DNA of 64,000 nt, from contig FR883868.1 of the NCBI GenBank assembly GCA_000435275.1, positions 10,665 to 74,664 on the forward strand. The letters run 5' to 3'. The DNA comes from Clostridium sp. CAG:557 (GTDB lineage: Bacteria; Bacillota; Clostridia; Oscillospirales; Acutalibacteraceae). A program made the translations under genes and the position numbers. The number at the start of each line of letters is the position of its first letter. Position 1 is the stretch's first letter. Shown piece after piece: positions 3,083-48,800 of this stretch. The notes below the pieces were generated by a model, which was not told the origin of the DNA, ran no database searches, and saw nothing but the letters and a program-made list of their open reading frames with translations.

Positions 3083-3190
3083 CGCAGTGCGCCCCCCGGA
3101 ATAAACACTAAAAAATATTGTTTATTCCGGTCTGCAACTGCTTTAAAGTTGCAGACGCAGTGCATTGAAAATGTACTGCGGGGGCGCTTC
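3083..3190 (+). promoter_or_regulatory. highly structured 5' leader RNA upstream of remA (three adjacent hairpins enclosed by a GC stem)
   Basis: Perfect 12-bp hairpin 3096-3107/3119-3130. A 9-bp hairpin 3131-3139/3147-3155. A third hairpin 3156-3164/3172-3180. The closing stem GCGCCCCC 3090-3097 pairs with GGGGGCGC 3180-3187. A direct repeat CGCAGTGC (3083-3090 and 3156-3163) allows alternative pairing. No U-tract follows. Confidence 0.4.
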
Positions 3191-3236
3191 TAAGGCAAGT
3201 TCACTCTTTATGTCAGCGAAAAAGGGAGAAATCTTC

Positions 3237-3512
3237 ATGAAATTTATTAATGTTGGCTTTGGAAATATGGTATCTTCAGCAAGAATTGTTACCATCGTAT
3301 GTCCAGATGCTGCTCCGATTAAGCGCGTAATAACCGATGCCAGAAATAAAAACGAGCTAATTGACGCAACTTGTGGAAGAAGAACCCGAGCCGTTATCGT
3401 TACTGACAGCAGACTTATCATACTTTCAGCTCTACAGCCAGAAACAATTTCCAATAGGCTCAAAGGTGACTTCTCAAATGATGAAGGAGATTTAGATTTA
3501 TATGAGCAATAA
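3237..3512 (+). CDS. remA: RemA/YlzA (DUF370) family regulator
   Basis: [12 protein letters not shown]...PIKR motif typical of RemA/YlzA. RBS AAAGGGAGA lies 7 nt upstream of ATG 3237. It sits immediately upstream of gmk as in Bacillus. The ORF-track start at 3165 was rejected. Confidence 0.85.
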
Positions 3513-4104
3513 AGGTTTACTTGTTGTTTTATCCGGTCCGTCTGGTTCTGGAAAAGATACAATTCTTGAACGGCTTGTTAATCTTGACAAAAACATTGTT
3601 AAGTCAATATCCGCTACAACTAGACCTTGCAGAATTGGCGAAGTTGATGGAAAAGATTACTTTTTTATTTCTGAACAGGATTTTTGTAACGCTATATCTG
3701 ATGAAAAATTGCTTGAATATACCAACTACTGTGGAAATTATTATGGAACCCTAAAAAATTTAGTAGAAGATTTACAAAATAATCAAAAAGATGTAATCTT
3801 AAAAATAGAAGTCGACGGAGCTAAACAAATTAAAGAAAAATGCCCTGACTCCTTAAGAATTTTTATATTGCCTCCATCTATGGACGACTTAAAAGATAGA
3901 CTATCTAAACGCGGAACTGAAACACCCGAAAATTTAGAAAAACGTTTGAATCGAGCCAAAGACGAAATAAAATTTTCGTCGGAATATGATTACATAGTCA
4001 TAAACGATGAAGTCGATAAATGTGCTCAAAATATATACTCAATTATAAATGCCGAAAAGTTTAAACTGCATAGAATGAAAAATATTATTAATGAGGTGCT
4101 TTAA
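3502..4104 (+). CDS. gmk: guanylate kinase
   Basis: P-loop GPSGSGKDT and guanylate kinase fold signature. Conserved remA-gmk-rpoZ order. Confidence 0.93.
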
Positions 4105-4337: not shown

Positions 4338-6800
4338 ATGAATGAAAAATTTATTGTAAAAGTTGCCGTTGAACATATCGTTTATCACCTTGACAAGTTT
4401 TATGACTATATTGTCCCAGAAGAATTTTGTCAAAACTTGGATGTTGGCTGTAGAGTTTTGGTCCCTTTTGGTGCTGGTAATAAAAAACGTCAAGGAATCG
4501 TTTTGCAGACGGATTTTTCTTCAGATACCTCTAAGTTAAAATCAGTTTTTGCAGTACTGGATGCCGTTCCAATTCTGAACGATGAAATGCTAGAACTTGC
4601 TAAATTCATAAAGAAAAAATATTTTTGTACAATTTATGACGCAGTCAAGCTTATGATTCCCGCCGGCATGAATTTTAAATTACATGAACAGTTTAAACTT
4701 TGTGATAATTTTAACGAATCTTTAGTCTTAAACTGCAACAAAATGGAAAAAAATTTGATTTCATATTTAAAAAATTTTAATGGTTGGGCTTCTAAGGAAG
4801 TTTTGTTGAATAATTTCGGGGCAACAACTCTAAACTGTTTAAAAAATTTAGAAAACAATTCAATAATTCAAAAAAGAGAACTCCAAAAAAGAAATTTATC
4901 TGACTCAAAAGTTAAAATGGTTAAATTAAAAGAACCTTTTGTTTCAATTTGTAATGTTAAAATTACGCCAAAACAAAAAATTATATATGACATTCTTACT
5001 CAAAATTTAAGTGGAATTTCTTTAAAAGAATTATTATACTTTTCTGGTTTTAGTGTTTCTGTTGTGGATAATTTAGTAAAAAAATGTATCGCAGAATATT
5101 TTGAAGATAAAGCTTACAGAGACCCATATAAAAATGTAAAATTTTCATGCTCTTCCAAAAAAATTATTTTGAATGACGAACAAAAGGCTGCTTATAATTC
5201 TATTTTAGAATTATACAAAACTAAAAAATATTGCGTTTCACTCCTTTATGGAATAACGGGTAGCGGAAAAACCTCTGTTTTTATGCGCTTAATCGAAGAT
5301 GTTATTACTGACGGTAGCAATGTTATTGTTATGGTGCCAGAAATTGCTTTAACACCTCAAATGGTTACAATCTTTAAAAGCAAATTTTTTGACAAAGTCG
5401 CAGTGTTTCACAGTGGGCTGTCTCAGGCTGAACGAATGGATGAATACAAACGTGTTAAAGACGGCTTAGTTAATGTTGCTGTTGGCACCCGCTCCGCTGT
5501 TTTTGCGCCATTTGAAAAAATTGGGCTTATTATTATGGATGAAGAGCAAGAATCCAGCTACAAATCCGATGCTACTCCTAGATTTAACGCACGTGAAGTT
5601 GCTAAATTTAGATGTGCATATCATAAAAGTTTACTTCTTTTGTCTTCTGCCACACCTTCCGTTGAAACTTTCTTTTGGGCTAAAAATAAAAAATATAGCA
5701 TAAATATTTTAAAAAATAGATATGCTGGTGCAAAGTTACCTGCAGTCTCCATCGTAGATATGAATAAAGAACAAGAAAGTGGAAATTTTAGTGCTTTTAG
5801 TTCCAAACTAACTGATAAACTGACTCAAAATCTGAATAATGGCAATCAATCTATTTTATTACTCAACAGAAGAGGTTATCACACTTTAGTTTCTTGCAAA
5901 AGTTGCGGACAGGTTTTAATGTGTCCAAATTGTAGCATTGCTTTAACGCTTCACTCTGCAAACAAAAAATTAATGTGCCATTATTGCGGATTTTCTACTG
6001 ATATTACTGATAAATGTCCAAATTGCCATAAGCATCAGTTAAAATATATTGGTGTGGGAACTCAAAAAGTTGAAGAAGATTTGAAAAAATTTTTCCCTGA
6101 AGCTCGTATCTTGCGCATGGACACCGATTCGATGATGTCTAAATTTTCTTATGAAAACAAGTTAAGAGATTTTGCATACGGTAAATATGATATTATGTTG
6201 GGAACTCAAATGGTTGCTAAAGGGTTGGATTTTCCCAACGTAACCCTTGTTGGTGTTTTGTCAGCGGATCAGTCCCTATACAGCGGTGATTTCAAAAGTT
6301 ATGAACGTACTTTTTCTTTGCTTACACAAGTTGTTGGCAGAGCTGGAAGAAATCAACATAACGGATTTGCAGTTATTCAAACTTTTACGCCAGAAAATCC
6401 TATTATCAATTTGGCTGCCAAGCAAGATTATGATTCTTTTTATGCTGATGAGATAATTTTAAGAAAAGCTCTGTTGTATCCGCCTTTTGCAAAACTTTGC
6501 GTCATCGGATTTGTTGGTGAAAAAGAATTTAATGTAATGAATGCAGCAAAATTTTTCTTTGAAATACTTAAAGATTTAATAAAAACCAATTATTTTACCT
6601 TAACTGTTCGAATTTTAGGTCCTTCTCCTGCGCAAATTTTTAAAGTTAATGGTAAATTTCGGTATAAGATAATTATAAAATTTAAAGATGAAAAAATTTT
6701 TAGAAACTTTATCTCTGATGCTTTAATTAAATTCGGTAATTGTAAAAAATTTACCGGCATTTCCACTTTCGTCGATTTGGAACCGGATTCAATTTTGTAA
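4338..6800 (+). CDS. priA: primosomal protein N' (replication restart helicase)
   Basis: Walker A GITGSGKT, DEEQ box, CxxC...CxxC zinc-binding cysteines (CKSCGQVLMCPNC...CHYCG...CPNC) and a C-terminal helicase domain. Confidence 0.93.
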   Translation: MNEKFIVKVAVEHIVYHLDKFYDYIVPEEFCQNLDVGCRVLVPFGAGNKKRQGIVLQTDFSSDTSKLKSVFAVLDAVPILNDEMLELAKFIKKKYFCTIYDAVKLMIPAGMNFKLHEQFKLCDNFNESLVLNCNKMEKNLISYLKNFNGWASKEVLLNNFGATTLNCLKNLENNSIIQKRELQKRNLSDSKVKMVKLKEPFVSICNVKITPKQKIIYDILTQNLSGISLKELLYFSGFSVSVVDNLVKKCIAEYFEDKAYRDPYKNVKFSCSSKKIILNDEQKAAYNSILELYKTKKYCVSLLYGITGSGKTSVFMRLIEDVITDGSNVIVMVPEIALTPQMVTIFKSKFFDKVAVFHSGLSQAERMDEYKRVKDGLVNVAVGTRSAVFAPFEKIGLIIMDEEQESSYKSDATPRFNAREVAKFRCAYHKSLLLLSSATPSVETFFWAKNKKYSINILKNRYAGAKLPAVSIVDMNKEQESGNFSAFSSKLTDKLTQNLNNGNQSILLLNRRGYHTLVSCKSCGQVLMCPNCSIALTLHSANKKLMCHYCGFSTDITDKCPNCHKHQLKYIGVGTQKVEEDLKKFFPEARILRMDTDSMMSKFSYENKLRDFAYGKYDIMLGTQMVAKGLDFPNVTLVGVLSADQSLYSGDFKSYERTFSLLTQVVGRAGRNQHNGFAVIQTFTPENPIINLAAKQDYDSFYADEIILRKALLYPPFAKLCVIGFVGEKEFNVMNAAKFFFEILKDLIKTNYFTLTVRILGPSPAQIFKVNGKFRYKIIIKFKDEKIFRNFISDALIKFGNCKKFTGISTFVDLEPDSIL

Positions 6801-9145: not shown

Positions 9146-10189
9146 ATGAATCTTATCGACATAAAGTCTTTGTCTAAAGTAAATATTTCAGAGTTTCTGA
9201 AAGCTGAAGGGCAACCAAACTATAGGGGCAATCAAATTTATTTATGGCTGGTTAAAGGCGTTTGTAGTTTCGATGACATGCTGAATGTCCCTAAAGATTT
9301 GCGTAACAAATTGAAAGAAAAATGTTATATTGCAACCGCAAAAATTGAGCGCAAATTGGTTTCTAAATATGACGGCACTATAAAATATTTATTTAAACTT
9401 TACGACGGTGAATTTATCGAATCCGTTGTAATGAAATACAAGCATGGATATACTATTTGTATTTCTACTCAAGTTGGCTGCAAAATGAATTGTCAATTTT
9501 GTGCAACCGGAAATAGCGGATTTTCTCGAAATTTAACTGCTTCTGAAATGCTCGCACAGATTCAAACTGCTCAAATTGACAACCATATAAAAATTTCTAA
9601 TGTAGTTTTGATGGGTATGGGTGAACCTCTTGACAATTATGATAATGTCATTCAATTTTTAAAATTAGTCTCATCTGAAGATAATTTAAACATCGGAATG
9701 CGCCATATTTCGCTGTCTACTTGCGGTATAATTAATAAAATTTATGATTTGGCTAATGAAAATCTTCAACTCACTCTTTCAGTTTCTTTGCATGCACCAA
9801 ATGACTCAATTCGTAATACTTTGATGCCAATAAATAAGAATTTTAACGTCGACGAACTTTTAAAAGCTTGTAAATTTTACATAATTAAAACTAAACGTAG
9901 AATTTCTTTTGAGTATGCTATGATTTCTGATATTAATGACAGCGACGACTGCGCTATTGAACTGGCTCGTAAACTTTCAGGAATGCTATGTCATGTAAAT
10001 TTAATTCCTGTAAACAATATCGGGGTTGAAAAAATTTTTTATGAGAAAAGTAATCAAAAACGACTTGAAAAATTTATGAATATTCTTTCAAAATATGGCA
10101 TAAACGCTACCGTGAGAAGGACTTTAGGTGCAGATATCAATGCTTCTTGTGGGCAATTGCGAAGAAAAGCTACTGATTTGGAGGTGTAA
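9146..10189 (+). CDS. rlmN: 23S rRNA (adenine2503-C2)-methyltransferase, radical SAM
   Basis: CxxxCxxC radical SAM motif (CKMNCQFCATG) and RlmN-type length and context, upstream of stp-prkC. Confidence 0.9.
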   Translation: MNLIDIKSLSKVNISEFLKAEGQPNYRGNQIYLWLVKGVCSFDDMLNVPKDLRNKLKEKCYIATAKIERKLVSKYDGTIKYLFKLYDGEFIESVVMKYKHGYTICISTQVGCKMNCQFCATGNSGFSRNLTASEMLAQIQTAQIDNHIKISNVVLMGMGEPLDNYDNVIQFLKLVSSEDNLNIGMRHISLSTCGIINKIYDLANENLQLTLSVSLHAPNDSIRNTLMPINKNFNVDELLKACKFYIIKTKRRISFEYAMISDINDSDDCAIELARKLSGMLCHVNLIPVNNIGVEKIFYEKSNQKRLEKFMNILSKYGINATVRRTLGADINASCGQLRRKATDLEV

Positions 10190-10190
10190 T

Positions 10191-10922
10191 ATGCAGGTCT
10201 TTGGTAAAAGTGATATCGGGTTAAAACGAACTTCTAATCAGGATTGTTTTGACTATGAGAACATAAATGAAAATTTGCTTTGGGCTGTCGTTTGCGACGG
10301 CATGGGCGGCGTTAATGGTGGTGATATTGCAAGCAATTTAGCTGTAAATAGCATCCGAGAAATTTTGACTCAAAATTATACTGAAGGTTTACTGCCTGTT
10401 GACGTAGAAAATTTGTTGAAAAAAGCTATTCAAAAAGCAAATTTTGAAATTTTTTCAGCGGCTCAAAATGACAACAATTTGTCTGGTATGGGTACTACCA
10501 TCGTTTTAGTCGCTATCTTTTATGATAAAATCCACATCGCTCATATTGGCGACAGCCGAGCTTACTTGATACGTCAGGGTAATATTAAACAGTTAACTGT
10601 TGACCATTCTGTAGTTCAAGAAATGATAAATGAAGGTGAAATTACTCATGAAGAAGCTAAACGTCACCCTCAAAAAAATATAATTACACGTGCTCTTGGA
10701 ATTAGCAAAAATGTGGATATTGACTATTCTATTGAAACCAAAAAGCCAACAGATTCAATCATCATTTGTACCGATGGTTTAACTAATTATTTTGACCAAA
10801 ACGAAATTTTAGATTATGTCAAAAATAAAAAAAATAATCAACAGCTCGTTGACAACTTTATTTTTACTGCAAATGAACGTGGAGGCAATGACAATATTAC
10901 AGTTGTTATTTTAGGCGAGTGA
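10191..10922 (+). CDS. stp: PP2C-family Ser/Thr protein phosphatase
   Basis: PP2C motifs (DGMGG, DSRAY, TDGL, GGNDNITVV). ATG 10191 follows GGAGGTG and overlaps the rlmN stop. The ORF-track start at 10128 was rejected. Confidence 0.9.
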   Translation: MQVFGKSDIGLKRTSNQDCFDYENINENLLWAVVCDGMGGVNGGDIASNLAVNSIREILTQNYTEGLLPVDVENLLKKAIQKANFEIFSAAQNDNNLSGMGTTIVLVAIFYDKIHIAHIGDSRAYLIRQGNIKQLTVDHSVVQEMINEGEITHEEAKRHPQKNIITRALGISKNVDIDYSIETKKPTDSIIICTDGLTNYFDQNEILDYVKNKKNNQQLVDNFIFTANERGGNDNITVVILGE

Positions 10923-10942
10923 TTAAGTCAGAGGTGATTTTT

Positions 10943-12994
10943 ATGGATAAATACATTGGAAAAAGATTGGATGGACGGTACGAAATTAATGAACTGCTCG
11001 GTTGTGGCGGTATGGCTAAAGTTTACAGCGCTTATGATATTATAGATGACCGAACTGTTGCTATAAAAATTTTAAAAGATGAATTTTTGAACAACAAAGA
11101 CTTTATTAGAAGATTTAAAAATGAATCTAAAGCGATTGCTGTGCTATCTCACCCCAATATCGTTAAGATTTATGATGTTAGCTTTGGTGACAGAATTCAA
11201 TATATCGTTATGGAGAATATCGATGGAATAACTTTGAAAGAATATATCGACAGGCAGCATACAATCAAATGGCGTGACGCTGTTCATTTTACAATTCAAA
11301 TATTAAAAGCTTTGCAGCACGCTCACGAAAAAGGTGTTGTTCATAGAGATGTCAAACCTCAAAATATTATGCTTTTAAAAGATGGAACTATCAAAGTTAC
11401 AGATTTTGGTATTGCAAGGTTCGCTAAAAACGAAACTCGAACTATGACTGAAAAGGCTATAGGTTCAGTCCATTACATTTCTCCTGAACAGGCTCGAGGA
11501 GACATAACAGATGAAAAATCTGACATATACTCTGTTGGTGTTATGCTTTATGAGATGTTAACAGGAAAACTGCCTTTTGAAGCTGACAATGCTGTCTCTG
11601 TAGCAATTATGCAAATGCAATCTGAACCAAAAAAATTAAGAGAAATTAATCCGGAAATTCCTGAAGGTTTAGAAGATATTACTTTAAAAGCTATGAAAAA
11701 AAGCTCTGACCATAGATATAAATCTGCTGAAGAAATGTTGGAAGCTATCGAAATGTTTAGAAAAAATCCTAGCATCCGCTTTGAATATAAATACTTTTCT
11801 GATAACGCTCCTACAAAATATCTTGATGCTATAAACAATATCAAAGAAAGTAAGTCAAAATCTGGCTACTCCGATGGATATACTTATAATGATGAAGAAC
11901 AAGAGCCTTCTGAAAAACGTTCTAAAGCTATAAACATTTTAATTGGTGCAGGAATTGCTCTTATAATCTTCCTTGTAGTAATTGGTCTTGGCTTAGTTTC
12001 CGGTTGGTTCGGTTTCGGTAGCAAAGATATCGATGTACCAAATTTTATTGGTATGAAAATTTCTGATATTGTCGATAATGATAAATATAAATTTAGCTGG
12101 AATATCGAACAAGCTTATGATTCTAGCAAGCCAGAAGGCGTTATAATCGATCAAGATCCAAAATCTGGAACTAAGAAAATAAAAGAAAATTCTCGAATAA
12201 CCTTAACTGTAAACAGTTCTGGCACTTTGGTTTCTATTCCTTCTGTACGCGGATTAACCCTTGATGCGGCCAAAGCAAAAATTAAAGATGCTGGCTTAGT
12301 TTATGAAGTTCTTACCGTTGAAGACAGCGATACAGCTGAAGGAATTGTTAAAGGGACTGACCCAAAAGAAGGAACCGAAATTGTTGTAAATAGCATGGTT
12401 AGAATTCTCGTAAGCAAAGGTCCTGCTGAAAAAAAGGTTACCGTCCCGGATGTTATAAATAAATCACTTTCTGACGCAACCAAAGAGCTTATAGAAAAAG
12501 GCCTTAAAGTCTCAGATAACATTATTAAAGAAACCAGTAACAAGGCTAAAGATACGGTACTATCTACAAATCCGTTACCAGGAGTTGAAGTAAACGAAGG
12601 AAGTGCTATTACATTAACAATCAGCTCTGGAGAATCTCAAGAAAAAACTTTAAAAATTAATGTAGATTTACCTTCCAGTGTAAATCACGAAGTCAGTATG
12701 AAAGTTTATATAAATGGTGTTATGGATTCAAGTAACTCAAAAACTATAATTCCTGCATACAATTCTAATTACTCATTCTCTGTTAAAGGTTCCGGTGAAA
12801 CAAAAACTATAATTGTAAATTTAGACGGGCAAAAATATAGAGTCTATGAGGTAAATTTTAGCAGCGAAACGGTTCGTGCAACCGAAAAGTATAATTTTAA
12901 TGAATCTTCTGCATCAACTACAAGCAGTAAATCTTCAAATAAAAATCATAGTATAACCGAAACCAGAATGAAAATCCGAAGAAGGCAAAATTAA
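10943..12994 (+). CDS. prkC: Ser/Thr protein kinase with PASTA repeats
   Basis: Hanks kinase motifs (GCGGMAKVY, HRDVKPQN, DFGIA), a transmembrane segment and three PASTA repeats, with a C-terminal S/T-rich extension. Conserved stp-prkC pair. Confidence 0.92.
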   Translation: MDKYIGKRLDGRYEINELLGCGGMAKVYSAYDIIDDRTVAIKILKDEFLNNKDFIRRFKNESKAIAVLSHPNIVKIYDVSFGDRIQYIVMENIDGITLKEYIDRQHTIKWRDAVHFTIQILKALQHAHEKGVVHRDVKPQNIMLLKDGTIKVTDFGIARFAKNETRTMTEKAIGSVHYISPEQARGDITDEKSDIYSVGVMLYEMLTGKLPFEADNAVSVAIMQMQSEPKKLREINPEIPEGLEDITLKAMKKSSDHRYKSAEEMLEAIEMFRKNPSIRFEYKYFSDNAPTKYLDAINNIKESKSKSGYSDGYTYNDEEQEPSEKRSKAINILIGAGIALIIFLVVIGLGLVSGWFGFGSKDIDVPNFIGMKISDIVDNDKYKFSWNIEQAYDSSKPEGVIIDQDPKSGTKKIKENSRITLTVNSSGTLVSIPSVRGLTLDAAKAKIKDAGLVYEVLTVEDSDTAEGIVKGTDPKEGTEIVVNSMVRILVSKGPAEKKVTVPDVINKSLSDATKELIEKGLKVSDNIIKETSNKAKDTVLSTNPLPGVEVNEGSAITLTISSGESQEKTLKINVDLPSSVNHEVSMKVYINGVMDSSNSKTIIPAYNSNYSFSVKGSGETKTIIVNLDGQKYRVYEVNFSSETVRATEKYNFNESSASTTSSKSSNKNHSITETRMKIRRRQN

Positions 12995-15043: not shown

Positions 15044-15514
15044 TTAACGCTGAGAACCTCTTCTTGAAAAACTACCTCTTTTGGATTCAGTAGCTCGCTT
15101 TAAATCCGAAATTTTTTCTTCACTTTTATGTTTAAAAGATGAAAGCATTTCTTCAAAGCTGGAAACCGGATTTTTCTTAGGGCTCTGCCACTCAAAGTTT
15201 CCTGGTCTAGTGAATTTACTTGTTTTACCAGTATTTTGATTATTATCTTGACTTTGATTCAGCCGCTTTACCGGTTTTTGTGGCATTAATTTTTTTACTG
15301 AAAGAGCAATTTCATTTTTTTCCGAAATATTAATAATCTTTGCCTTTATTACTTGACCTATCTTCAAGTAGTCTTTAATGTCTTTTACAAAATCCGTTGA
15401 CACTTCAGAAATATGAACCATTCCAGTCTTGCCGTTTGGCAAATCTACAAAAGCTCCAAAATTTGTTATTCCTGATACTTTGCCCTCTACTATCGTTCCA
15501 ACCTCTAGTTGCAT
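15044..15514 (-). CDS. yabR: S1 RNA-binding domain protein (YabR-like)
   Basis: N-terminal S1 domain (EVGTIVEGKVSGITNFGAFV...GMVHISE). Position downstream of divIC as in Bacillus. Confidence 0.8.
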   Translation of the reverse strand: MQLEVGTIVEGKVSGITNFGAFVDLPNGKTGMVHISEVSTDFVKDIKDYLKIGQVIKAKIINISEKNEIALSVKKLMPQKPVKRLNQSQDNNQNTGKTSKFTRPGNFEWQSPKKNPVSSFEEMLSSFKHKSEEKISDLKRATESKRGSFSRRGSQR

Positions 15515-15537
15515 AAAAAAACAACTTCCTCCTTAAA

Positions 15538-15855
15538 TTAGTTCCCAGATATATTTACAAAAATTCTCTCATTATGTTTAGAAAGATTTAATTCTCGCGC
15601 TGTTTTTACAAAATACTCTTCATTCTCTTCATCAGTTGCTTGAGAAATTTTTCTTAATTTTTCATTCTTAGCCTTTTGAAGTTCTAATTCAGAATTAAGA
15701 CAGTTCAAATGCTCCCTTTTTTCATTAATCTTTGTATATTGACCTGCCAAAACAAAGACTGAATAGAAAACAAAAAATAACGCCACAGACTTTAACATCC
15801 ACTTAAATAAATTTTTTTTTAATTTTCTTTTGCCCTTTATAACTTTTATTTTCAT
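15538..15855 (-). CDS. divIC: septum formation initiator DivIC/FtsB family
   Basis: Single transmembrane segment followed by a coiled coil. Conserved yabP-yabQ-divIC-yabR synteny. Confidence 0.7.
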   Translation of the reverse strand: MKIKVIKGKRKLKKNLFKWMLKSVALFFVFYSVFVLAGQYTKINEKREHLNCLNSELELQKAKNEKLRKISQATDEENEEYFVKTARELNLSKHNERIFVNISGN

Positions 15856-15920
15856 TTTTGTTGAAAATATTTCCTTTCAAAAAACTTATAATTCATTATA
15901 TCATAAACATTATTTAAATT

Positions 15921-16430
15921 TCAACAAATATTTTTATCCAAATTAATTTTTGTTTTAGCCTTTATTTTTTTACGCATTTTCTGCAAAAATTTTTTCGGAG
16001 ATTTTGAATTTTTTATAAATTTGGATTTCATAGTCTTAAATTTATTTGTCAGTTTTCTCATTTTATCCTTTGGAATTTTTGATATAAAAAATCTTTTAAG
16101 TTTAGATAGCCATTTACTTAAAAATTTTACTACAGTTAAAATAAGTTTATAAACGAATTTTCCTACAGTGACTCGATATATCAGCCACCCAATCGCTTCT
16201 CCCAAAACAATATAAACCCGAATTTCTCCACTGTTCATTACTAAAATGTACGTGAATGTGATAATCGCACTTAAAACAAAGTATATTACATCTTCAAAAA
16301 AAATTCGCTTTAAATTCACTTTTAGCACAGCATTCATTATCCTAAAGCCATCAAAAAATAAGCTTAAAAAAGCCCCCAAAAGCATCGCAAACAAAAAAAT
16401 AGTTATCTGTGAAGTTACCATCGTGCCCAT
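15921..16430 (-). CDS. yabQ: spore cortex biosynthesis protein YabQ-like membrane protein
   Basis: Hydrophobic N-terminal region with a lysine-rich tail. Located between yabP and divIC. Confidence 0.6.
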   Translation of the reverse strand: MGTMVTSQITIFLFAMLLGAFLSLFFDGFRIMNAVLKVNLKRIFFEDVIYFVLSAIITFTYILVMNSGEIRVYIVLGEAIGWLIYRVTVGKFVYKLILTVVKFLSKWLSKLKRFFISKIPKDKMRKLTNKFKTMKSKFIKNSKSPKKFLQKMRKKIKAKTKINLDKNIC

Positions 16431-16441
16431 CTTTTTACCTC

Positions 16442-16723
16442 TTACCTAAACAGTTTAGAGAAAAAACCTCTCTCTGCTGGCCTATCTTCTGCGTACTCCA
16501 ATGAATATACTTCTCCATCAAGCTCTAAATCGCCGCTGTCTAAATTTATCTTATTTATGTGTAGATTACTTCCCTTTATTGTCAGTTCGCCCAAATCTGT
16601 ATATGCCACCACCGCGTTATCATCGAAACTATCTACATCTAAAACTCCTGATATATTTAATGATTTTCTCTCTTTTAATATCAAATTATGTGAAAGTTTT
16701 ATGTCTTTTTTTTCTTCTATCAT
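16442..16723 (-). CDS. yabP: sporulation protein YabP
   Basis: YabP/YqfC family sequence (HNLILKERKSLNISGV...) in the expected position. Confidence 0.8.
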   Translation of the reverse strand: MIEEKKDIKLSHNLILKERKSLNISGVLDVDSFDDNAVVAYTDLGELTIKGSNLHINKINLDSGDLELDGEVYSLEYAEDRPAERGFFSKLFR

Positions 16724-16786
16724 ATTTATTCCCCCAGTAATTATATTTATAAAAATAATTATGAGGTTGTTTTTTGTGATATTCCT

Positions 16787-17029
16787 TTAATTTACAACTT
16801 TATACATATTCGGTGCATCATCTTTTCTAACATATTCTGCCACTGCTAAAACTTCCACTGCAAGTTTTTTTGCTCCCAAATTTATCTCTATTTTATCTCC
16901 TATTTTTACATCGTACGAGGCTCTAGCTACTTTTCCATTTATCAAAATCTTACCTGCATCGCAAGCTTCGTTTGCAATAGTCCTTCTTTTTATGAGTCGC
17001 GTGATTTTTAAATATTTATCTAATCTCAT
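16787..17029 (-). CDS. yabO: S4-domain RNA-binding protein (YabO/Hsp15-like)
   Basis: MRLDKYLK...RTIANEACDAGKILINGK S4 motif. ATG at 17029 lies 6 nt after GGAGG. The ORF-track start at 17062 was rejected. Confidence 0.8.
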   Translation of the reverse strand: MRLDKYLKITRLIKRRTIANEACDAGKILINGKVARASYDVKIGDKIEINLGAKKLAVEVLAVAEYVRKDDAPNMYKVVN

Positions 17030-17043
17030 AATTTTCCTCCGAA

Positions 17044-17076
17044 AAAATCGACTTCCTATCAAAAGAAGTCGATTTT
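17044..17076 (-). terminator. rho-independent terminator after hup
   Basis: 10-bp stem AATCGACTTC/GAAGTCGATT, followed on the minus strand by a T-run. Confidence 0.65.
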
Positions 17077-17084
17077 ATTTAAAA

Positions 17085-17363
17085 TTATTTTCCAGATACA
17101 GCATCCTTAAAGCCTTTACCTGCTTTAAATGCTGGAACTTTACAAGCTGGAATTGTAATTGGTTTGTTTGTTCTTGGATCGCGGCCGGTTCTTTCACTAC
17201 GAGAGCGCAATTCAAATGTTCCAAAACCGATCAATTGAACTCTATCGTCTTCTTTAACGGCCTCCATAATTGAATCAATAACGGCTGCAACTGCTTTTTC
17301 AGAATCTTTTTTAGAAAGGCCGCTCCTTTCTGCTACCGATGCAATCAAGTCTGTTTTATTCAT
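17085..17363 (-). CDS. hup: DNA-binding protein HU
   Basis: MNKTDLIASVAE...GFGTFE...R.GRNP.T motif typical of HU. RBS GGAGG. Confidence 0.92.
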   Translation of the reverse strand: MNKTDLIASVAERSGLSKKDSEKAVAAVIDSIMEAVKEDDRVQLIGFGTFELRSRSERTGRDPRTNKPITIPACKVPAFKAGKGFKDAVSGK

Positions 17364-17628
17364 TTTGACTACCTCCATTTTTATTTTTATTCATCAAAGC
17401 TTTTTTACTTTGAGAATTAACTAATTTAAATCTAGCGCTTAGAAATATAGACTTTATTTGGCTTTGCAAAATAGCCTTAATTTGCCAAATTATAGAAGTC
17501 TTTTACATTATACCTTTTTTTCCCTTAAAAGTCTACACTTTTTTATTTTTCTCAGAAATTGTAAAAAATTAGTTTTTATTACCTGAGAAAAATGTCTATA
17601 TTTCCATAAATCGCTAAACAAGACTATT

Positions 17629-19410
17629 TTAACTGATAAATCGTAATTTTTCAAGTATCTTTATAATTTTTTCTCCTTTTGGCAACAATTTTATGTCATT
17701 GCGACTTAGTTCACCTAATGAAACTAATGCTAAAAGGTACACTACAACCGCAAAAATTATAGACAAAGCTATAGCTATTATTACCGGAACCCTATCTTTT
17801 AGCAGTATCATTAATATTTTTGCTGCTGCTCCACAAAATAATGACCCAACAAGTGGTTTTAATACTGTGTCGACGAAACTTGGGACTACTTTTGTATTTT
17901 TAAACAGCATATACATCGAAGTCACCAATATAAATGCATAACCAGCTAATGTCCCTATTCCTGCTCCCTGTATGTTTATTTGTGGAACTCCTACTAAAAC
18001 ATAATTTACCAATATTTTTATTGCCAAGCCTATTGAGATTATTTTTACCGGCAAATCCACCCGGCCTATTGCCTGAAGCATACTGCAAATCGGTGTGCTT
18101 GCAGCTGTAAATATCGTTGCTATTCCTAATATTGGAATTATTTCTGACGCTATGCTAACTGCAATTGGACGACTTCTGTAAATTACGCTCAAAAGTTCCG
18201 GTCCTATAACAGACAGTCCTATTCCAGCTGGAATTGTAACTAACATCGTCATTCTTATTACAGTTTCCATACTTTTTTTTAATTTTTCACTATCTTTGAG
18301 TGTCCAAGCTCTTGTTACCGACGGCAAAGCAACTATTCCAAATGCCTGTGTTATTGCAGGAACTAGCATCATCAGAGGCAAAGTAAAAGAATAACATCCC
18401 ATTAAAAATCCGTGAACACCGTCTTTACTTCTTACTACACTCTCACCTATTTTTGACCCATACTGTGCCAATAATTCATTTGGCGTCGTTGACATCACAT
18501 ACTGTATTCTGTGCAAAATCAGAGTTGTGTCGATTAATCCCGCTACATTCATAATTATTGCACCTAACCCAATAGGTAGTGCATTTTTTATCAATGTTTT
18601 TGCTATGGACTTTCCACTTTTTGCTTCTGGTGAATGCATTATTTCATTTTTTGTTATGCCATCACCACGAATTTTATCTTGTAAAATCAAATATAAAAAT
18701 CCCGCCGCTGCTCCCAGTGATATTCCTAAAATTGCTCCAGCTGACGCCAGCGGCATTATGGCAGCCTCTGCCAATTCTTTTGTCGCATATGCTTTGCCTA
18801 AAAATGTGCCATTTGTCAAGTACTCTCGCATGCCAAACCGTATTATGCCATATGACGTCACATAACCTATAAAAAATTTAAAGCTGGCTTCTATTACCTC
18901 AGAAGTTGCGGTCGGAGTCATATTTTTTAGCCCTTGATAATACCCTCTATAAATTGACATTAAACATGCAAAAAATATTGTTGGAGCCAACGTTATTACC
19001 GAATAAAAAGCTCCTGGAACGTTTACAAAAGGCAACCGAGGAATTATAAATGCACCTAAAATCATCAGCAATAAGCCCACTGTTCCTGTAAGCAAAAATA
19101 TTGGCAAGGAAATCTTTTTTATTTTTTTTACGTCCCTATACCTTCCATTTGCGACACTTTCCGAAACCATCCTAGAAATTGCTATTGGCAAACCTGCTGT
19201 TGCCAAAGCAAATAGCGGATTATATATCTCATACGCTACCGTAAAATACGTTGCGCCTGTTGGTCCTATCATTCCCGTTACAAAAATTCTAAATAATATG
19301 CCCATTATTTTTACTAAAAGCAAGCTTCCTGTCAAAATCACCGTGCCTTGCATAAAACTTTGATCTTTTCTTTTTATTCTTTTTTCACATTTTGTACTGT
19401 TTTTATTCAC
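17629..19410 (-). CDS. MOP-superfamily polysaccharide/lipid II flippase (SpoVB/YabM-like)
   Basis: ~14 predicted transmembrane helices and MOP/MurJ-like length. Located where yabM/spoVB-like genes occur near the yabP cluster. Confidence 0.7.
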   Translation of the reverse strand: MNKNSTKCEKRIKRKDQSFMQGTVILTGSLLLVKIMGILFRIFVTGMIGPTGATYFTVAYEIYNPLFALATAGLPIAISRMVSESVANGRYRDVKKIKKISLPIFLLTGTVGLLLMILGAFIIPRLPFVNVPGAFYSVITLAPTIFFACLMSIYRGYYQGLKNMTPTATSEVIEASFKFFIGYVTSYGIIRFGMREYLTNGTFLGKAYATKELAEAAIMPLASAGAILGISLGAAAGFLYLILQDKIRGDGITKNEIMHSPEAKSGKSIAKTLIKNALPIGLGAIIMNVAGLIDTTLILHRIQYVMSTTPNELLAQYGSKIGESVVRSKDGVHGFLMGCYSFTLPLMMLVPAITQAFGIVALPSVTRAWTLKDSEKLKKSMETVIRMTMLVTIPAGIGLSVIGPELLSVIYRSRPIAVSIASEIIPILGIATIFTAASTPICSMLQAIGRVDLPVKIISIGLAIKILVNYVLVGVPQINIQGAGIGTLAGYAFILVTSMYMLFKNTKVVPSFVDTVLKPLVGSLFCGAAAKILMILLKDRVPVIIAIALSIIFAVVVYLLALVSLGELSRNDIKLLPKGEKIIKILEKLRFIS

Positions 19411-36205: not shown

Positions 36206-36700
36206 TTGAAAAAATTTATATCTCTCTTAGTTTGTTCAACTTTATTCTCTTGCGTAGAGCCTAATCTTTATTGCAGTGCTGAAGATAAAGTCATCAATAA
36301 AAAAATATTGAAAGTCCACATCTCGCCCAAAAAAGCTGCAAGTATAAAGTTAAATATTAACGAAGATGAATTCTTAAAAAATAAACTTTTAGAATTGTCT
36401 AAAAACAAAAATTTTACAGATCAAGTAATAAAAAATTATACAAACGCTCATGAAGCTCCAATTTGGCTAAAAATTGTAAAAATTTTATGCTTGCCATTTA
36501 ATGCTTGCTGGTTTTTGGTCAAAAAAACTTGTGACTATGTTATAGGAAAAAAAGCAACAAAATTTATTGAAAATACATTGATTCCTACTGCATTCGCTGC
36601 TACAACCGGTTTAGCAATTTATAATAAAATACCTTCAGTGCACAAATTTATTGACTATATTATCTCTTTTATTAAAACTTCTTCAAATGAAACCGAATAA
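36206..36700 (+). CDS. hypothetical small secreted/lipoprotein
   Basis: Signal peptide MKKFISLLVCSTLFSC and no recognisable domain. Its 3' end overlaps the queH start by 14 nt. Confidence 0.45.
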   Translation: MKKFISLLVCSTLFSCVEPNLYCSAEDKVINKKILKVHISPKKAASIKLNINEDEFLKNKLLELSKNKNFTDQVIKNYTNAHEAPIWLKIVKILCLPFNACWFLVKKTCDYVIGKKATKFIENTLIPTAFAATTGLAIYNKIPSVHKFIDYIISFIKTSSNETE

Positions 36701-37344: not shown

Positions 37345-37400
37345 TTTAGAATAATCACTCCTTCATTGTGTAAAAATAAGCCTAGAAAGGATGTGTTTTT

Positions 37401-37847
37401 GTGAAACCAACAGAAAATGAATATTCTAAAATGTCTGACGATGCTTCCCCAGCTTCTCCAATGATAAAAAATATCTTTTGGGCTTTTATTTCCGGAGGAA
37501 TCATTTGTACAATCGGACAATTTTTAATAAGTTTTTATCAAAATTACTGCGGTTTAAATTTAAAAGATTCTCGTGCTGCTGTATCTGTAACTTTAGTCGG
37601 AGCCGGAGCTTTGCTCACTGCTCTGCGTGTGTACGATAACATTGCAAAACACGCTGGCGCCGGAACACTTGTTCCCATAACAGGTTTTGCAAATTCTATC
37701 GTCGCACCTGCTATTGAGTTTAAAAGTGAAGGTCAAATCATGGGAATCGGTGCTAAAATGTTCATCATTGCTGGACCGGTTTTGGTCTTTGGTGTAACCG
37801 CCTCAACTATCTATGGCCTAATTCTATGGATTTTTAAATTATTTTAA
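37401..37847 (+). CDS. spoVAC: stage V sporulation protein AC-like (SpoVAC/SpoVAEB family) membrane protein
   Basis: ~150 aa with four transmembrane segments and the conserved VPITGFANSIVAPAIEFKSEG region of SpoVAC. It is solitary here (no spoVAD/spoVAEb adjacent). Confidence 0.75.
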   Translation: MKPTENEYSKMSDDASPASPMIKNIFWAFISGGIICTIGQFLISFYQNYCGLNLKDSRAAVSVTLVGAGALLTALRVYDNIAKHAGAGTLVPITGFANSIVAPAIEFKSEGQIMGIGAKMFIIAGPVLVFGVTASTIYGLILWIFKLF

Positions 37848-45551: not shown

Positions 45552-45582
45552 ACTTATAATGAATTTATTTTTGGAGGAAATT

Positions 45583-46425
45583 ATGAAAAAAATTGCTATA
45601 ATCACTGATTCTGCCGGAGATTTATCCGCTAGCTTTGCAAAAAAACATAATATAAAAGTAATTCCACTTAGAATTTGTTTTTCTGATAGGGAATTTCTCG
45701 ATGGAGTTAATATTCGCAGTAGTGAAATCTATCAATTTATGGACAAAGAAATTCCAAAATCATCACTACCTTATCGCAATGACATAATTTCTACTTTCGA
45801 ACAAGTTAAAAGTGAAGGCTACACGGATGTAATTTATATCGGAATTTCTTCTGGCTTGTCTGGAACATTCAATTCTGTGCGATTAATTGCTAATGAATTT
45901 GACGGTTTAAATATTCACTGTTTCGACTCAAAAGCCTTGTCGTGTGCGCAAAATATGCTAATTTCAACTGCCGTAACTGCTCTTAAAACTACTGACAATG
46001 TTCAGGAAATTCTTAATAAACTTCAAAAAACGCGTAAAAAAATGGTTGCTATGTTCTGTGTTCGTGACCTTACTTACTTAATTAAAGGCGGACGCATTGG
46101 AAAAGTGGCAGGAACTGTTGGCACACTGTTAAAATTATGCCCTGTTATCAAGGTTAACGATGATGGTGTTTATGAAACCGCTTCCAAAACTATCGGGTTT
46201 AACCGTGCCATCGACACTCTCATAAACGAATTTAAAACTCACTTTGCAAATGCTGAAATTGCTATTTCACTAACTTATTCTTCCAATAAAGAAATTGCAG
46301 AAAAAATAAAGTCCGAAATAAAAAAGCATTGTAAAGTTAAATTTTGTGAAATGAACCCTGTTACTGCCGTTTTAGGTGTACATACTGGTCCAGACATGGC
46401 AGGAATAGCTGCTTACCAAATTTAA
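45583..46425 (+). CDS. DegV-family fatty-acid-binding protein (FakB-like)
   Basis: MKKIAIITDSAGDL N-terminus and DegV fold. ATG 45583 follows GGAGG. The ORF-track start at 45559 was rejected. Confidence 0.85.
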   Translation: MKKIAIITDSAGDLSASFAKKHNIKVIPLRICFSDREFLDGVNIRSSEIYQFMDKEIPKSSLPYRNDIISTFEQVKSEGYTDVIYIGISSGLSGTFNSVRLIANEFDGLNIHCFDSKALSCAQNMLISTAVTALKTTDNVQEILNKLQKTRKKMVAMFCVRDLTYLIKGGRIGKVAGTVGTLLKLCPVIKVNDDGVYETASKTIGFNRAIDTLINEFKTHFANAEIAISLTYSSNKEIAEKIKSEIKKHCKVKFCEMNPVTAVLGVHTGPDMAGIAAYQI

Positions 46426-46440
46426 ATTTAATATAAAAAT

Positions 46441-46476
46441 AAGCCTTTTGAAACAAAGTTCAAAAGGCTTTTTTGT
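46441..46476 (+). terminator. rho-independent terminator after degV
   Basis: 12-bp stem AAGCCTTTTGAA/TTCAAAAGGCTT followed by TTTTT. Confidence 0.75.
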
Positions 46477-46597
46477 CACCTAAAATTTAAAATTAATATT
46501 ATGTATTGATAAGTTTATTTTTGATGTTTATTTTTATTAAAATCCGGTAAAAATATTTTTATCAAAACTATAATAAAATTTTCGGAGTGTGAAAAAG

Positions 46598-46969
46598 GTG
46601 ACTATAAAACGTGGGGACATCTTTTATGCTGATTTAAGTCCTGTTGTAGGCTCAGAACAAGGTGGAATTAGGCCGGTTTTAATCGTTCAAAATGACGTCG
46701 GAAACAAATTCAGTCCAACAGTAATCGCAGCCGCTATCACAAGTCAACATTCAAAGGCCGACCTTCCTACTCACATACAACTTCAAGCTCATGGATGTGG
46801 TCTTTCTAAAGATTCCGTAGTACTGTTGGAGCAAATTCGAACTCTCGATAAAAAACGTTTAAAAGAAAAAATGGGCTGTCTGGATACTTTTGCAATGAAT
46901 TTGGTAGACAAAGCGCTGTCTATAAGTTTCGGTCTTTTAAATAACTACGCTATAAAAGAAGCTACATAA
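46598..46969 (+). CDS. mazF: PemK/MazF-family endoribonuclease toxin (EndoA/NdoA-like)
   Basis: Near-colinear similarity to Bacillus EndoA ([39 protein letters not shown]...LPTH....LLEQIRT.DK.RL). GTG start at 46598 lies 10 nt after GGAG. No antitoxin ORF is adjacent. Confidence 0.85.
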
Positions 46970-47103
46970 AAACAAAACAAGACTTTCAAAAATTCAGTTT
47001 CTTTTTAGCCAAAAAAGCGACTGCTTTAGCTTATGTGCTAGCAATCGCTTTAAATATTCTTTAAATTTTAAACATTATTTAAATTTCATTAACCTTACGG
47101 TGC

Positions 47104-48621
47104 TTATGGTGCGTCTAAAGCTGCTCCCGGTTGTTCCGCCTCGGCAGCACCGTGCGCAACATCTCCAGTGATATTAACATCGCCTTCAATTTTTTGTTGA
47201 CCTACAGGCATATTAACAACATTAACATTTATTACAGGTTGAAGTGCAGAGGCTGCTTGCGTGGTTTGTGGTTGACCGCCTTGTGCTCCATCATTTGTAT
47301 CTGTCTGCTGTGCTGGTTGTGCTGGTTGCTGACCGCCTTGCATTCCATTGCTTTCTTGTTGTTGTGAGTCTATTTTCGCTTCATTATTTTTAGGTTTTGG
47401 TTCTACTTTATTCATAATATCTAAAGTCTTTCTAAAGCCATTACTTATACCAGACCAAGAAGCCTTAATAAAGTCAGACATAAATTGTGGTAAAACAGAG
47501 TCTATTGTTTTCAATGTTAAATTGCCTAAGTTTTTGAACCATTGGTACATACCTGGTTTTTCTTTAGTGGAATTTATTAAACTTTCCACTTCGCTTAATT
47601 TTTCTTCATCAATAGGTTTACCATCTTCAGGCATTTTAAATACTTTTTGAATGCTAAATTCTAAAGTAGATTTGTCATTATGTAAAAAGTCGTAACCATT
47701 TAATGCAAGCAAATTAAATAACTTATAAGCTTCTGGTTTATCTTCTATGTTGTTATTAACAACAACTGCCAAATGTTGAATAGGTTTTTCTGCAGAAAGC
47801 GTTGCAACTAATCCATATTTTTTCAGATCACTTTCAGATTTATCTACAAAAGAATCACAAATTTTATTTTTTTGTAAATCAGCTGCTTTATTTTTTTCAT
47901 CAGCCTCTTTCTTTGAATAAAAATGAGAAACATTAATTGGCTCTTTATAATCTACAAACTTAAATATGTTTCCATTTTCTACTGTATTATACGGATCATA
48001 TTGATCAACATTAGGGTCCTGCAAACCTGCTAAAGCTCTTTTAACCATTTCCTCTGATAATTTAACTCCATTACTTTTACCATTTTGATCTACAATTTTC
48101 TTATTAAAGTCATCAATAGTTTTCTTTTCTAACTTTTTTTCACCCTCTTTTACATCCTTCGTAAAAAACACTTTTGCGTCTTCTTTAGATATAGGTAAAA
48201 GACGATATTCTACTGGAACACGTTTATCAACCATCCAATTCCAAAATCTTTTAGGAATATTATACCAACAAGCTTTTTCTTTTACTCCATCTAACATAAA
48301 CTTATTAAATTCTTTTCTTTTTGGAGTTTTCCTAAGGAAAGTTGACAGATTAAAAGGATTAAAACTATAGTGCAGAGGCTCCTCTTTTGTCTCAACTTGT
48401 ACTCCCATATTGGGCATCAATGCATTTGTGTCTTTAATTTTCACCTCAACAATTCCCAAACAACCTGCCTGCATATCTTTGCTTACCCAAGGATATTTAG
48501 AAGGTTTAACTAAAGTTGCTGAACATAAATTTGATTTAACTTTAGCCGATAATGCAAAACTTATTGGCGAAAAATTAGTCAAAATAGCTATAGCTAAACT
48601 TGTTATAATAAATTTTTTCAT
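47104..48621 (-). CDS. secreted protein of unknown function with Q/G/P-rich C-terminal low-complexity tail
   Basis: N-terminal signal peptide MKKFIITSLAIAILTNFSPISFALSAK. ~400-aa K/E-rich globular region with no recognisable domain. C-terminal ~100 aa is QGGQQPAQPAQQ-type repeats encoded by GC-rich short tandem repeats (TTGACCGCCTTG). Confidence 0.6.
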   Translation of the reverse strand: MKKFIITSLAIAILTNFSPISFALSAKVKSNLCSATLVKPSKYPWVSKDMQAGCLGIVEVKIKDTNALMPNMGVQVETKEEPLHYSFNPFNLSTFLRKTPKRKEFNKFMLDGVKEKACWYNIPKRFWNWMVDKRVPVEYRLLPISKEDAKVFFTKDVKEGEKKLEKKTIDDFNKKIVDQNGKSNGVKLSEEMVKRALAGLQDPNVDQYDPYNTVENGNIFKFVDYKEPINVSHFYSKKEADEKNKAADLQKNKICDSFVDKSESDLKKYGLVATLSAEKPIQHLAVVVNNNIEDKPEAYKLFNLLALNGYDFLHNDKSTLEFSIQKVFKMPEDGKPIDEEKLSEVESLINSTKEKPGMYQWFKNLGNLTLKTIDSVLPQFMSDFIKASWSGISNGFRKTLDIMNKVEPKPKNNEAKIDSQQQESNGMQGGQQPAQPAQQTDTNDGAQGGQPQTTQAASALQPVINVNVVNMPVGQQKIEGDVNITGDVAHGAAEAEQPGAALDAP

Positions 48622-48800
48622 AAATATAATTCTCCCTTTCAACTTCATGTTTATATTATATCACAGCAGTTACTTAATTTCAAATTTTTATGAAATTTTC
48701 TCTTATTTATATAAACAACCCCCAAAATAATTTGAAAAATCTGTCGATTTAACGAAAAATCAAATATTATTCAATGAATAACATACGAAACATTTTTTAA

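Follow-up and report, generated by a model that had tools for sequence, protein, structure and literature searches.

A solitary mazF gene of Acutalibacteraceae has a forespore-type promoter and a MazF recognition site on its stop codon, and may limit its own expression

A solitary mazF gene in the DNA studied here, a 64,000-nt stretch of Clostridium sp. CAG:557 (contig FR883868.1, positions 10,665 to 74,664 of the forward strand; hereafter the window, with coordinates counted from its first nucleotide), raises the question of how a ribonuclease toxin is kept in a genome without an antitoxin. The DNA belongs to the metagenome-assembled genome of an uncultured human-gut member of the Eubacteriales/Acutalibacteraceae. 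In a survey of ~3,300 Bacillota genomes, MazF was present in 80% of species, and the upstream antitoxin was missing in ~25% of the MazF-bearing Bacillota, for example in Enterococci, with the control mechanism left open (bioRxiv 10.64898/2026.08.06.743204). Solitary MazF as such is already on record, and the only explained case is that of Myxococcus. An earlier note, made from the letters of the window, had proposed that the toxin is held by an antitoxin encoded elsewhere, is inactive, has been repurposed, or is regulated differently. Our results favor the last of these alternatives: the gene has a conserved promoter that resembles those of forespore genes, and a MazF recognition site lies on its own stop codon. 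No description of either conserved feature was found in the literature searched.

The mazF open reading frame (ORF) occupies 46598-46969 on the forward strand and comprises 123 codons, beginning with GTG, plus a stop codon; the length of 124 aa given in the earlier note holds only if the stop is counted, and the protein has 123 aa. Its product matches the full PF02452 (PemK_toxin) profile (positions 1-109 of 109, E=2.4e-34) and aligns without gaps to the structures of Bacillus subtilis EndoA and B. anthracis MoxT (E~1e-44, ~60% identity), in agreement with the colinearity with Bacillus EndoA that had been noted. A 10-aa C-terminal tail extends past the SFGL end of the fold. A second in-frame GTG lies upstream at 46589. 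The Shine-Dalgarno sequence GGAG (46584-46587) is followed 10 nt on by the GTG at 46598; it belongs to the ribosome-binding region GGAGTGTGAAAA (46584-46595, +), and cGGAGtGTGAAA is kept across species before the aligned starts. ATG, GTG, or TTG stands at the aligned start position in 80 species. The spacing and the aligned starts favor 46598 as the start, and the GTG at 46589 is disfavored because it is too near the Shine-Dalgarno sequence.

Alignment with the MazF proteins of B. subtilis, Staphylococcus aureus, Listeria, and Enterococcus faecalis showed that G6, P15, G18, E20, R25, P26, N36, T48, and R87 are invariant. The catalytic pair consists of R25 and T48 (PMC10893535), and G18 and P26 contact bases of UACAU (PMC8634880). 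The residues that mark the EndoA subfamily, catalytic Arg25 and Thr48 and the RNA-contacting G18, E20, P26, and N36, are all present in the window protein. These results indicate a bona fide EndoA-type enzyme whose key residues are intact and which is apparently active. Its specificity is probably U^ACAU(A), judging from the ~60% identity and the identical RNA-contact residues. The UACAUA cut site has been measured for the MazF of B. subtilis, Listeria, and S. aureus only (bioRxiv 10.64898/2026.08.06.743204), and the RNA co-crystallized with the B. subtilis enzyme (MazF-bs) was UUdUACAUAA (PMC8634880).

No antitoxin gene accompanies this enzyme. As the earlier note had it, the 172-nt upstream gap (46426-46597) encodes none, since it contains no ORF of at least 20 aa on the forward strand, a result that includes a check for a short ORF that had been missed, and the downstream gene (47104-48648, -) is convergent. 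Six-frame translations were searched with phmmer in the 64-kb window and, at 92 related loci, in the ~10 kb surrounding each homolog (up to 5 kb from mazF), with B. subtilis EndoAI (checked to be identical to PDB 4me7 chain E) and S. aureus MazE as queries, and no MazE or EndoAI homolog was obtained, with nothing below E=0.3. The small intergenic ORFs of the window are rpoZ, secE, rpmG, HU, yabO, yabP, and a divIC-like gene, and not antitoxins. The adjacent, co-transcribed antitoxin of a type II module (mazEF) is therefore lacking in the window, and the same is true of the 80 species described below. An RNA antitoxin is not apparent either, as had been remarked: between 46300 and 47200, the only tandem repeats at mazF are trivial AT-rich ones, unlike those of a type III (ToxIN-like) system, and no Rfam family is found at gathering score or with a convincing E-value. 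Small ORFs abutting mazF in five related loci (L015, L073, L046, L069, and L014) were considered as antitoxins and rejected as non-conserved, low-complexity junk. An antitoxin in reverse order downstream was likewise rejected, the downstream genes being convergent or unrelated and the downstream proteins of Monoglobus and Pusillibacter looking secreted.

The solitary arrangement extends well beyond this genome. With one genome taken per species, a scan of relatives gave 80 Acutalibacteraceae/Oscillospirales loci with MazF 75-100% identical, and mazF stands alone in all of them, with varied neighbors, an upstream gap of ~100-800 nt, and no conserved abutting ORF. Two more mazF representatives, present in many assemblies, are solitary too. 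Across the loci compared, the solitary mazF is a lineage trait and not a local accident. Outside the family, alr is followed directly by mazF, with no mazE, in Monoglobus, Pusillibacter, Acetoanaerobium, Limosilactobacillus oris, and Enterococcus, while the order alr-mazE-mazF is found in S. aureus, B. thuringiensis, Listeria, Lysinibacillus, Anoxybacillus, and Paenibacillus. The gene orders of these relatives outline the evolutionary route to a solitary mazF, with an ancestral position next to alr. In passing, several PLSDB "plasmids" (NZ_CP154629.1, NZ_CP054613.1, NZ_CP030101.1, NZ_CP093325.1, NZ_CP077935.1, and others) were seen to carry the chromosomal alr-mazEF-rsb/sigB region; these records of 0.25-5.5 Mb are evidently chromosomes or chromosome fragments misfiled as plasmids.

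The end of the gene carries the sequence that its own product is expected to cut. TACATA at 46963-46968 (+), which is the MazF recognition site U^ACAUA in the RNA, spans the last Thr codon and the stop (GCT ACA TAA), and it is the sole copy in the mazF transcript, TACAT being found nowhere else in it. TACATA lies exactly at -4 from the mazF stop in 47 of 81 species and 5-10 nt past the stop in 6 more, which brings the total to 53/81. Five of the 28 Oscillospirales mazF genes that have no TACATA near the stop have TACTTA at -4, an alternative site of S. aureus MazF, whose mRNA is cut at U^ACUUA (Sierra, 2020).

The pattern of conservation points to the nucleotides. In the 47 loci with the site at -4, the terminal Thr codon is always ACA (47/47), the penultimate codon always ends in T (47/47), with 8 different codons for 8 amino acids, and the stop is always TAA or TAG (47/47). 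Elsewhere in mazF, all four Thr codons are in use at the four invariant internal Thr residues, and third-position identity between species is ~0.33, which is saturated. The C-terminal tails vary from 1 to 17 aa and end in, for example, ...KEAT, ...AQAT, ...GGGT, ...DGPLT, or ...GLT; a terminal Thr is found in 101 of the best 120 protein clusters listed. Among control ORFs in those loci, 1/620 ends in T-ACA-TAR. Because the nucleotides of the site are invariant while the length and sequence of the tail vary, selection appears to act on the RNA and not on the protein. Avoidance of the cut site throughout the window was also considered and rejected: TACATA occurs at chance level, with 36 copies where 34.5 are expected; the sense strand has 13 of them, compared with 14.5 when codons are shuffled, so its frequency is evidence neither way.

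A different arrangement was seen 3' of one short-tailed mazF (L036, ~5370-5410), whose 3' untranslated region (UTR) contains (CTTACAT)n tandem heptamers with four UACAU cores and which has no stop-codon site. A degenerate version of the heptamer (CTTACTT) occurs in another locus (L050). Such repeats might serve as a decoy, or as another kind of self-target with several sites.

The site is also frequently displayed in a predicted hairpin. In the window, the RNA of 46935-47060 (126 nt) folds at -27.5 kcal/mol (z=-4.1), and the predicted stem pairs 46949-46963 with 46996-47009 (feature 46949-47009, +), leaving a 32-nt A-rich loop that starts at the predicted cleavage point, so that this point is the stem-loop junction and the site is unpaired. 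This stem is longer-range than in other species, in many of which the last codons pair with the first bases of the 3' UTR and ACAUA(A) lies in the loop, as in GGCU-ACAUA-AGCC or in ACGGGCUUUAC-UACAUAA-GUAAAGCCCGU, after which comes a U-run; several such stop-codon hairpins are intrinsic terminators. At least 4 contiguous flanking pairs were found in 33/53 mazF loci, against 8.4 +/- 2.6 of 53 after flank shuffling and 94/720 at other stop codons, and at least 5 in 26/53, against a shuffle mean of 3.0 of 53 and 41/720 at other stop codons. A stricter hairpin test based on minimum free energy gave 19/47 for mazF and 76/720 for other stop codons. Hairpin display of the site is thus 4- to 8-fold over controls. 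One hairpin in a fixed register was rejected as a description: the stems are spread over several registers, which defeats a single covariation model, and clear enrichment is seen only if the register is left free.

At the other end of the gene, a second conserved element was found. The 70 nt upstream of 80 mazF genes contain three conserved blocks, G(T/A)(T/A)TAAA, GG(T/C)AAAAATA, and cGGAGtGTGAAA, and are otherwise unrelated. The spacing from G(T/A)(T/A)TA to GG(T/C)AAAAATA is exactly 15 nt, invariant in length and unconserved in sequence, and the two-block motif scores at least 12 of 15 in 76/82 loci. In the window, these blocks form a sigma-F/sigma-G-like promoter at 46526-46555 (+), with the -35 element GTTTA (46526-46530), a 15-nt spacer, and the -10 element GGTAAAAATA (46546-46555), which places the probable transcription start near 46561-46562. 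The -10 element lies 42 nt before the start codon, which is also the median distance across loci. In B. subtilis, the sigma-F consensus is GYATA-N15-GGnnAnAHTR, and the forespore-promoter pattern G(Y/W)(A/W)TA-N15-GGnnAnAHTR occurs at suitable distance upstream of mazF. Start-mapped sigma-F/G promoters of Clostridioides difficile have the -35 elements GTATA, GATTA, and GTTTA, that of spoVT being GTATA..GGTAAAAATA; in the forespore promoters of this species, a 5' G marks sigma-F and a 3' A marks sigma-G. The strict motif has 57 matches in 789 kb of sampled DNA, all upstream of mazF, and GWWTA-N16-GTAAAAATA occurs twice in the 64-kb window, before mazF and before spoVAC, against 0.03 expected. 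These results suggest that the mazF promoter belongs to the forespore sigma-F/sigma-G class and that the gene is probably expressed in the forespore.

The spoVAC/SpoVAEB gene serves as a comparator outside the mazF unit (37401-37847, +; PF03862, E=5e-42), with its promoter GAATA-N15-TGTAAAAATA at 37349-37378, and the spoVAC promoters of 4 relatives are of the matching class, ~20 nt before the start. The window copy stands alone, with no adjacent spoVAD or spoVAE; in one relative (L194), spoVAC is followed by spoVAD, and the neighbors of spoVAC vary among relatives. Sporulation genes within the window are yabP, yabQ, a gene for a SpoVB-like flippase, and spoVAC. At 15044-17378 (-), the gene order is that of B. 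subtilis yabO-yabP-yabQ-divIC-yabR, preceded by the HU gene and the gene for the SpoVB/MurJ-like flippase (17629-19410), and this cluster indicates that the organism keeps a sporulation program. A further sequence, TTnT(T/C)(G/A), directly 3' of the mazF -10 element (46556-46561) is kept in 76 loci; it may represent the region of the transcription start, or an operator to which a forespore regulator of SpoVT or RsfA type binds.

A comparison of loci that have or lack mazE links the stop-codon site to the state of the antitoxin. In antitoxin-less Enterococcaceae, TACATA lies within 13 nt of the mazF stop in 6/6 loci, at -4 in E. faecalis, a second Enterococcus, and Vagococcus, and at -13, -11, and +8 in three other Enterococcus lineages, so that the copies sit in different reading frames. 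Among MazE-paired loci from a MazE-anchored metagenome scan, TACATA is found in 0/34 within -13 to +12, and all of these genes end in ...LI(D/E)F; among annotated MazE-paired loci it is found in 1/6 (Lysinibacillus, at +5), for a paired total of 1/40. In this set of loci, the site appears to track the absence of an antitoxin, in an association that is strong, not universal. Two further observations were made at these loci. In the paired mazEF of Lysinibacillus fusiformis (L107), the palindrome TATACATATGTGTATA begins 3 nt past the TGA stop. In Monoglobus pectinilyticus (L093, ~2377-2382), TACATA lies 4 nt past the alr stop, between alr and mazF, where it is perhaps a different processing point.

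Taken together, we consider the chances slightly better than even that this MazF is a self-limiting mRNA interferase, probably expressed in the forespore, which cleaves its own message at the stop codon, two cis-acting controls replacing the antitoxin. According to this proposal, the lineage would have lost a co-transcribed MazE, and mazF would have become a stand-alone transcription unit. A forespore sigma factor would transcribe the monocistronic gene, and the developing spore would be the main place of MazF synthesis. As MazF accumulated, it would cut U^ACAUA sites, including that on its own stop codon (...NNU^ACA UAA), and the cut would fall at a codon boundary, one codon before the stop, removing the last Thr codon, the stop, and the 3' hairpin. 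Ribosomes would then stall on the non-stop mRNA, and trans-translation would tag the nascent MazF for proteolysis, while the mazF transcript that had lost its 3' hairpin would be exposed to 3' exonucleases. More MazF activity would lead to less MazF synthesis, which is negative feedback. That the promoter is read by such a sigma factor, that the window MazF has this specificity and cleaves its own message, and that tagging by transfer-messenger RNA and decay follow, is what we infer from the sequences.

B. subtilis MazF has been described as a non-lethal regulator with a narrow regulon, specific for the 6-nt UACAUA (bioRxiv 10.64898/2026.08.06.743204), and with a 6-base recognition site the enzyme would strike only a subset of messages; in the window, 12/59 genes have TACATA on the sense strand. 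The statement in the earlier note that an uncontrolled MazF would be lethal was thus overstated. Cutting of their own mRNAs has been reported for the MazF of S. aureus and Escherichia coli (Nikolic, 2018; Sierra, 2020).

Several observations weigh against this proposal. TACATA is missing near the stop in 28/81 solitary Oscillospirales mazF genes, which are short forms ending near SFGL, and it was present in 0/7 of the other antitoxin-less loci (Monoglobus, Pusillibacter, Subdoligranulum, Acetoanaerobium, Alkaliphilus, L. oris, and Virgibacillus). A mazF gene can thus be solitary without the site, and for the short-tailed third, which has neither antitoxin nor site, the promoter must be enough control by itself, or something unseen must provide it. 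The Lysinibacillus gene has the site in spite of its antitoxin, and the contrast between paired and antitoxin-less loci is confounded with phylogeny because the paired controls are nearly all Bacilli. In those species where the loop is only 5 nt, so tight a loop might hinder MazF access rather than help it. On the side of the promoter, the motif has a likeness to sigma-B promoters too, in its -35 consensus GTTTAA and its 14-nt gap, and AT-rich sigma-A-like matches occur upstream of mazF, at chance frequency. Relaxed motif scans of the 789 kb gave no regulon members other than mazF and the window spoVAC, in a sample too small to define a regulon.

Other explanations account for part of these data. 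A protein antitoxin might be encoded elsewhere in the genome, the cis features being secondary. We regard this as somewhat unlikely, and it is compatible with self-limitation. It is documented for the solitary MazF of Myxococcus, where MazF-mx is neutralized by MrpC, and the Bacillota survey leaves the option open for Enterococci (bioRxiv 10.64898/2026.08.06.743204); our search reached the window and the surroundings of each homolog. However, no MazE/EndoAI-like sequence was found there in 80 species, the variable neighbors imply that mazF has no conserved partner gene, and a distant antitoxin leaves the nucleotide-level constraint at the stop codon unexplained. It is quite unlikely, in our estimate, that there is no dedicated control at all, MazF being mild owing to its 6-nt specificity, and TACATA being kept, uncut, for termination context, for another factor, or for hairpin or terminator geometry. 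The reported non-lethality and narrow regulon of B. subtilis MazF, the chance frequency of TACATA in the window, and the third of solitary loci that have no site would all fit such a view, but what is conserved is precisely the hexamer measured as the MazF cut site, and it is missing from 39/40 paired genes. Moreover, it stands at -13, -11, -4, and +5 to +10, in different frames and in two distant lineages, which argues against a cause at the level of the protein or of termination context.

The upstream motif might instead be a sigma-B-like stress promoter, which is the chief rival to the forespore reading, or a regulator site, so that mazF would be stress-induced in vegetative cells. The sigma-B consensus is GTTTAA-N12-15-GGGTAT, which the -35 element and its gap fit; mazEF adjoins the rsb-sigB operon in Bacilli, and extra conserved bases (TTnTTG) follow the -10 element. 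Yet the third -10 base, a G that is a hallmark of sigma-B promoters, is G in 0/76 loci, and the conserved -10 element extends over ten bases (GGnAAAAATA) that fit sigma-F/G; on these two grounds the sigma-B reading is disfavored, and we consider it rather unlikely. In addition, an identical -10 core precedes spoVAC in the window and in relatives, and a sigma-B-type pattern gives one intragenic chance match in the window. Loss of an antitoxin gene often precedes inactivation of the toxin, and this gene might be an inactive pseudo-toxin, as had been suggested, or the orphan remnant of a degraded toxin-antitoxin module on its way to loss. That is barely credible here: the catalytic and RNA-binding residues are all invariant, protein identity is 75-100% over 80 species and ~60% to the enzyme of Bacillus against saturated synonymous sites, and start, ribosome-binding site, and promoter are all conserved. 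Some MazF/PemK toxins reside in defense islands, and the gene had also been suspected of being repurposed as a defense module. We found no support for this suspicion, and an anti-phage or abortive-infection role is very improbable for a core gene that is conserved vertically across the family and has housekeeping neighbors (polA, dus, degV, pgm, and metG) with no mobile-element or defense-island context.

If self-limitation is correct, its reach may be wider than one family. Tentatively, and at just under an even chance, we suggest a widespread antitoxin-free architecture in which the toxin's own mRNA acts as the antitoxin and which Oscillospirales, with a forespore promoter, and Enterococcaceae either acquired or kept independently of each other. 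With the hexamer fixed on the stop codon and exposed in a hairpin loop, every burst of activity would turn the mazF message into an unprotected non-stop RNA, and toxin synthesis would be capped. Such an architecture would then account for part of the ~25% of MazF-bearing Bacillota that have no adjacent antitoxin. E. faecalis is genetically tractable and carries a matching site. Confirmation would extend the known toxin-antitoxin controls by a feedback mode that works through RNA in cis, would tie MazF to spore development in abundant gut Clostridia, and would give synthetic circuits a compact design for RNases that limit themselves.

The features that flank the mazF unit are as follows. Upstream lies degV (45559-46425, +; PF02645, E=3e-77), whose intrinsic terminator, found in a terminator scan, has a 12-bp stem and a T-run (46441-46470, +) and is expected to insulate mazF from read-through. 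The convergent gene downstream (47104-48648, -), also outside the mazF unit, encodes a 514-aa protein that has no Pfam match, carries a hydrophobic, signal-like segment at its N-terminus, and is rich in Gln, Pro, and Ala at its C-terminus; in a near-identical locus (L001), a gene of 514 aa occupies the matching position, and other relatives have convergent ORFs of varied length. Between the convergent genes, RNA folding predicts a second hairpin (47014-47051, not assigned to a strand), which is likely a shared or bidirectional terminator and was not called by the simple terminator scan. Farther away in the window, genes for a PP2C phosphatase and a Ser/Thr kinase with three PASTA repeats form a PrpC/PrkC-like pair (10128-12994, +) with a 4-nt ORF overlap. 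Two ORFs have no Pfam match, one of 139 aa (3143-3562, -) and one of 164 aa (36206-36700, +) that overlaps the queH start by 50 nt, so that its start or its reality is uncertain.

Compared with known systems, the window enzyme is closest to those of B. subtilis EndoA/NdoA-EndoAI and of the MazEF modules of S. aureus, Listeria, and C. difficile, with ~60% identity, the same R25/T48 pair and RNA contacts, and the same core-fold length. In contrast to these modules, the window mazF, an EndoA/NdoA-type gene, has no mazE, is monocistronic, lies away from alr and rsb/sigB, and has its own forespore-type promoter. Its tail ends in a Thr whose codon forms the MazF site together with the stop, whereas the paired genes end in ...LI(D/E)F and have no site. 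Own-transcript cutting as negative feedback, as proposed here, is known from E. coli mazEF (Nikolic, 2018) and S. aureus mazF (Sierra, 2020). There, however, the operons are antitoxin-paired, the sites are within the coding region, and they act by shifting the toxin:antitoxin ratio, while the site described here overlaps the stop codon of a gene with no antitoxin, is often displayed in a hairpin loop, and is predicted to yield a non-stop mRNA.

Among solitary enzymes, the Enterococci have an EndoA-type MazF that lacks an upstream antitoxin and, as in the window lineage, TACATA near the stop in every locus compared, a site that was not reported in the survey that includes them (bioRxiv 10.64898/2026.08.06.743204). 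The Enterococcaceae differ in that mazF directly follows alr or acpS and has no forespore-type promoter, and because of this position its expression is presumably vegetative. MazF-mx of Myxococcus xanthus likewise has no co-transcribed antitoxin and is tied to a developmental (sporulation) program, but it belongs to another MazF clade and phylum, and the distant MrpC is both its activator and its antitoxin, while the features of the window mazF, the promoter and the site in its own mRNA, are cis-acting. In C. difficile, a clostridial MazF is under a sporulation sigma factor, as we propose here, except that the pair is intact and its expression is sigma-E-dependent and in the mother cell (Saujet, 2013). 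A link between MazF and sporulation therefore has a precedent in Clostridia, and the compartment implied by our results is a different one.

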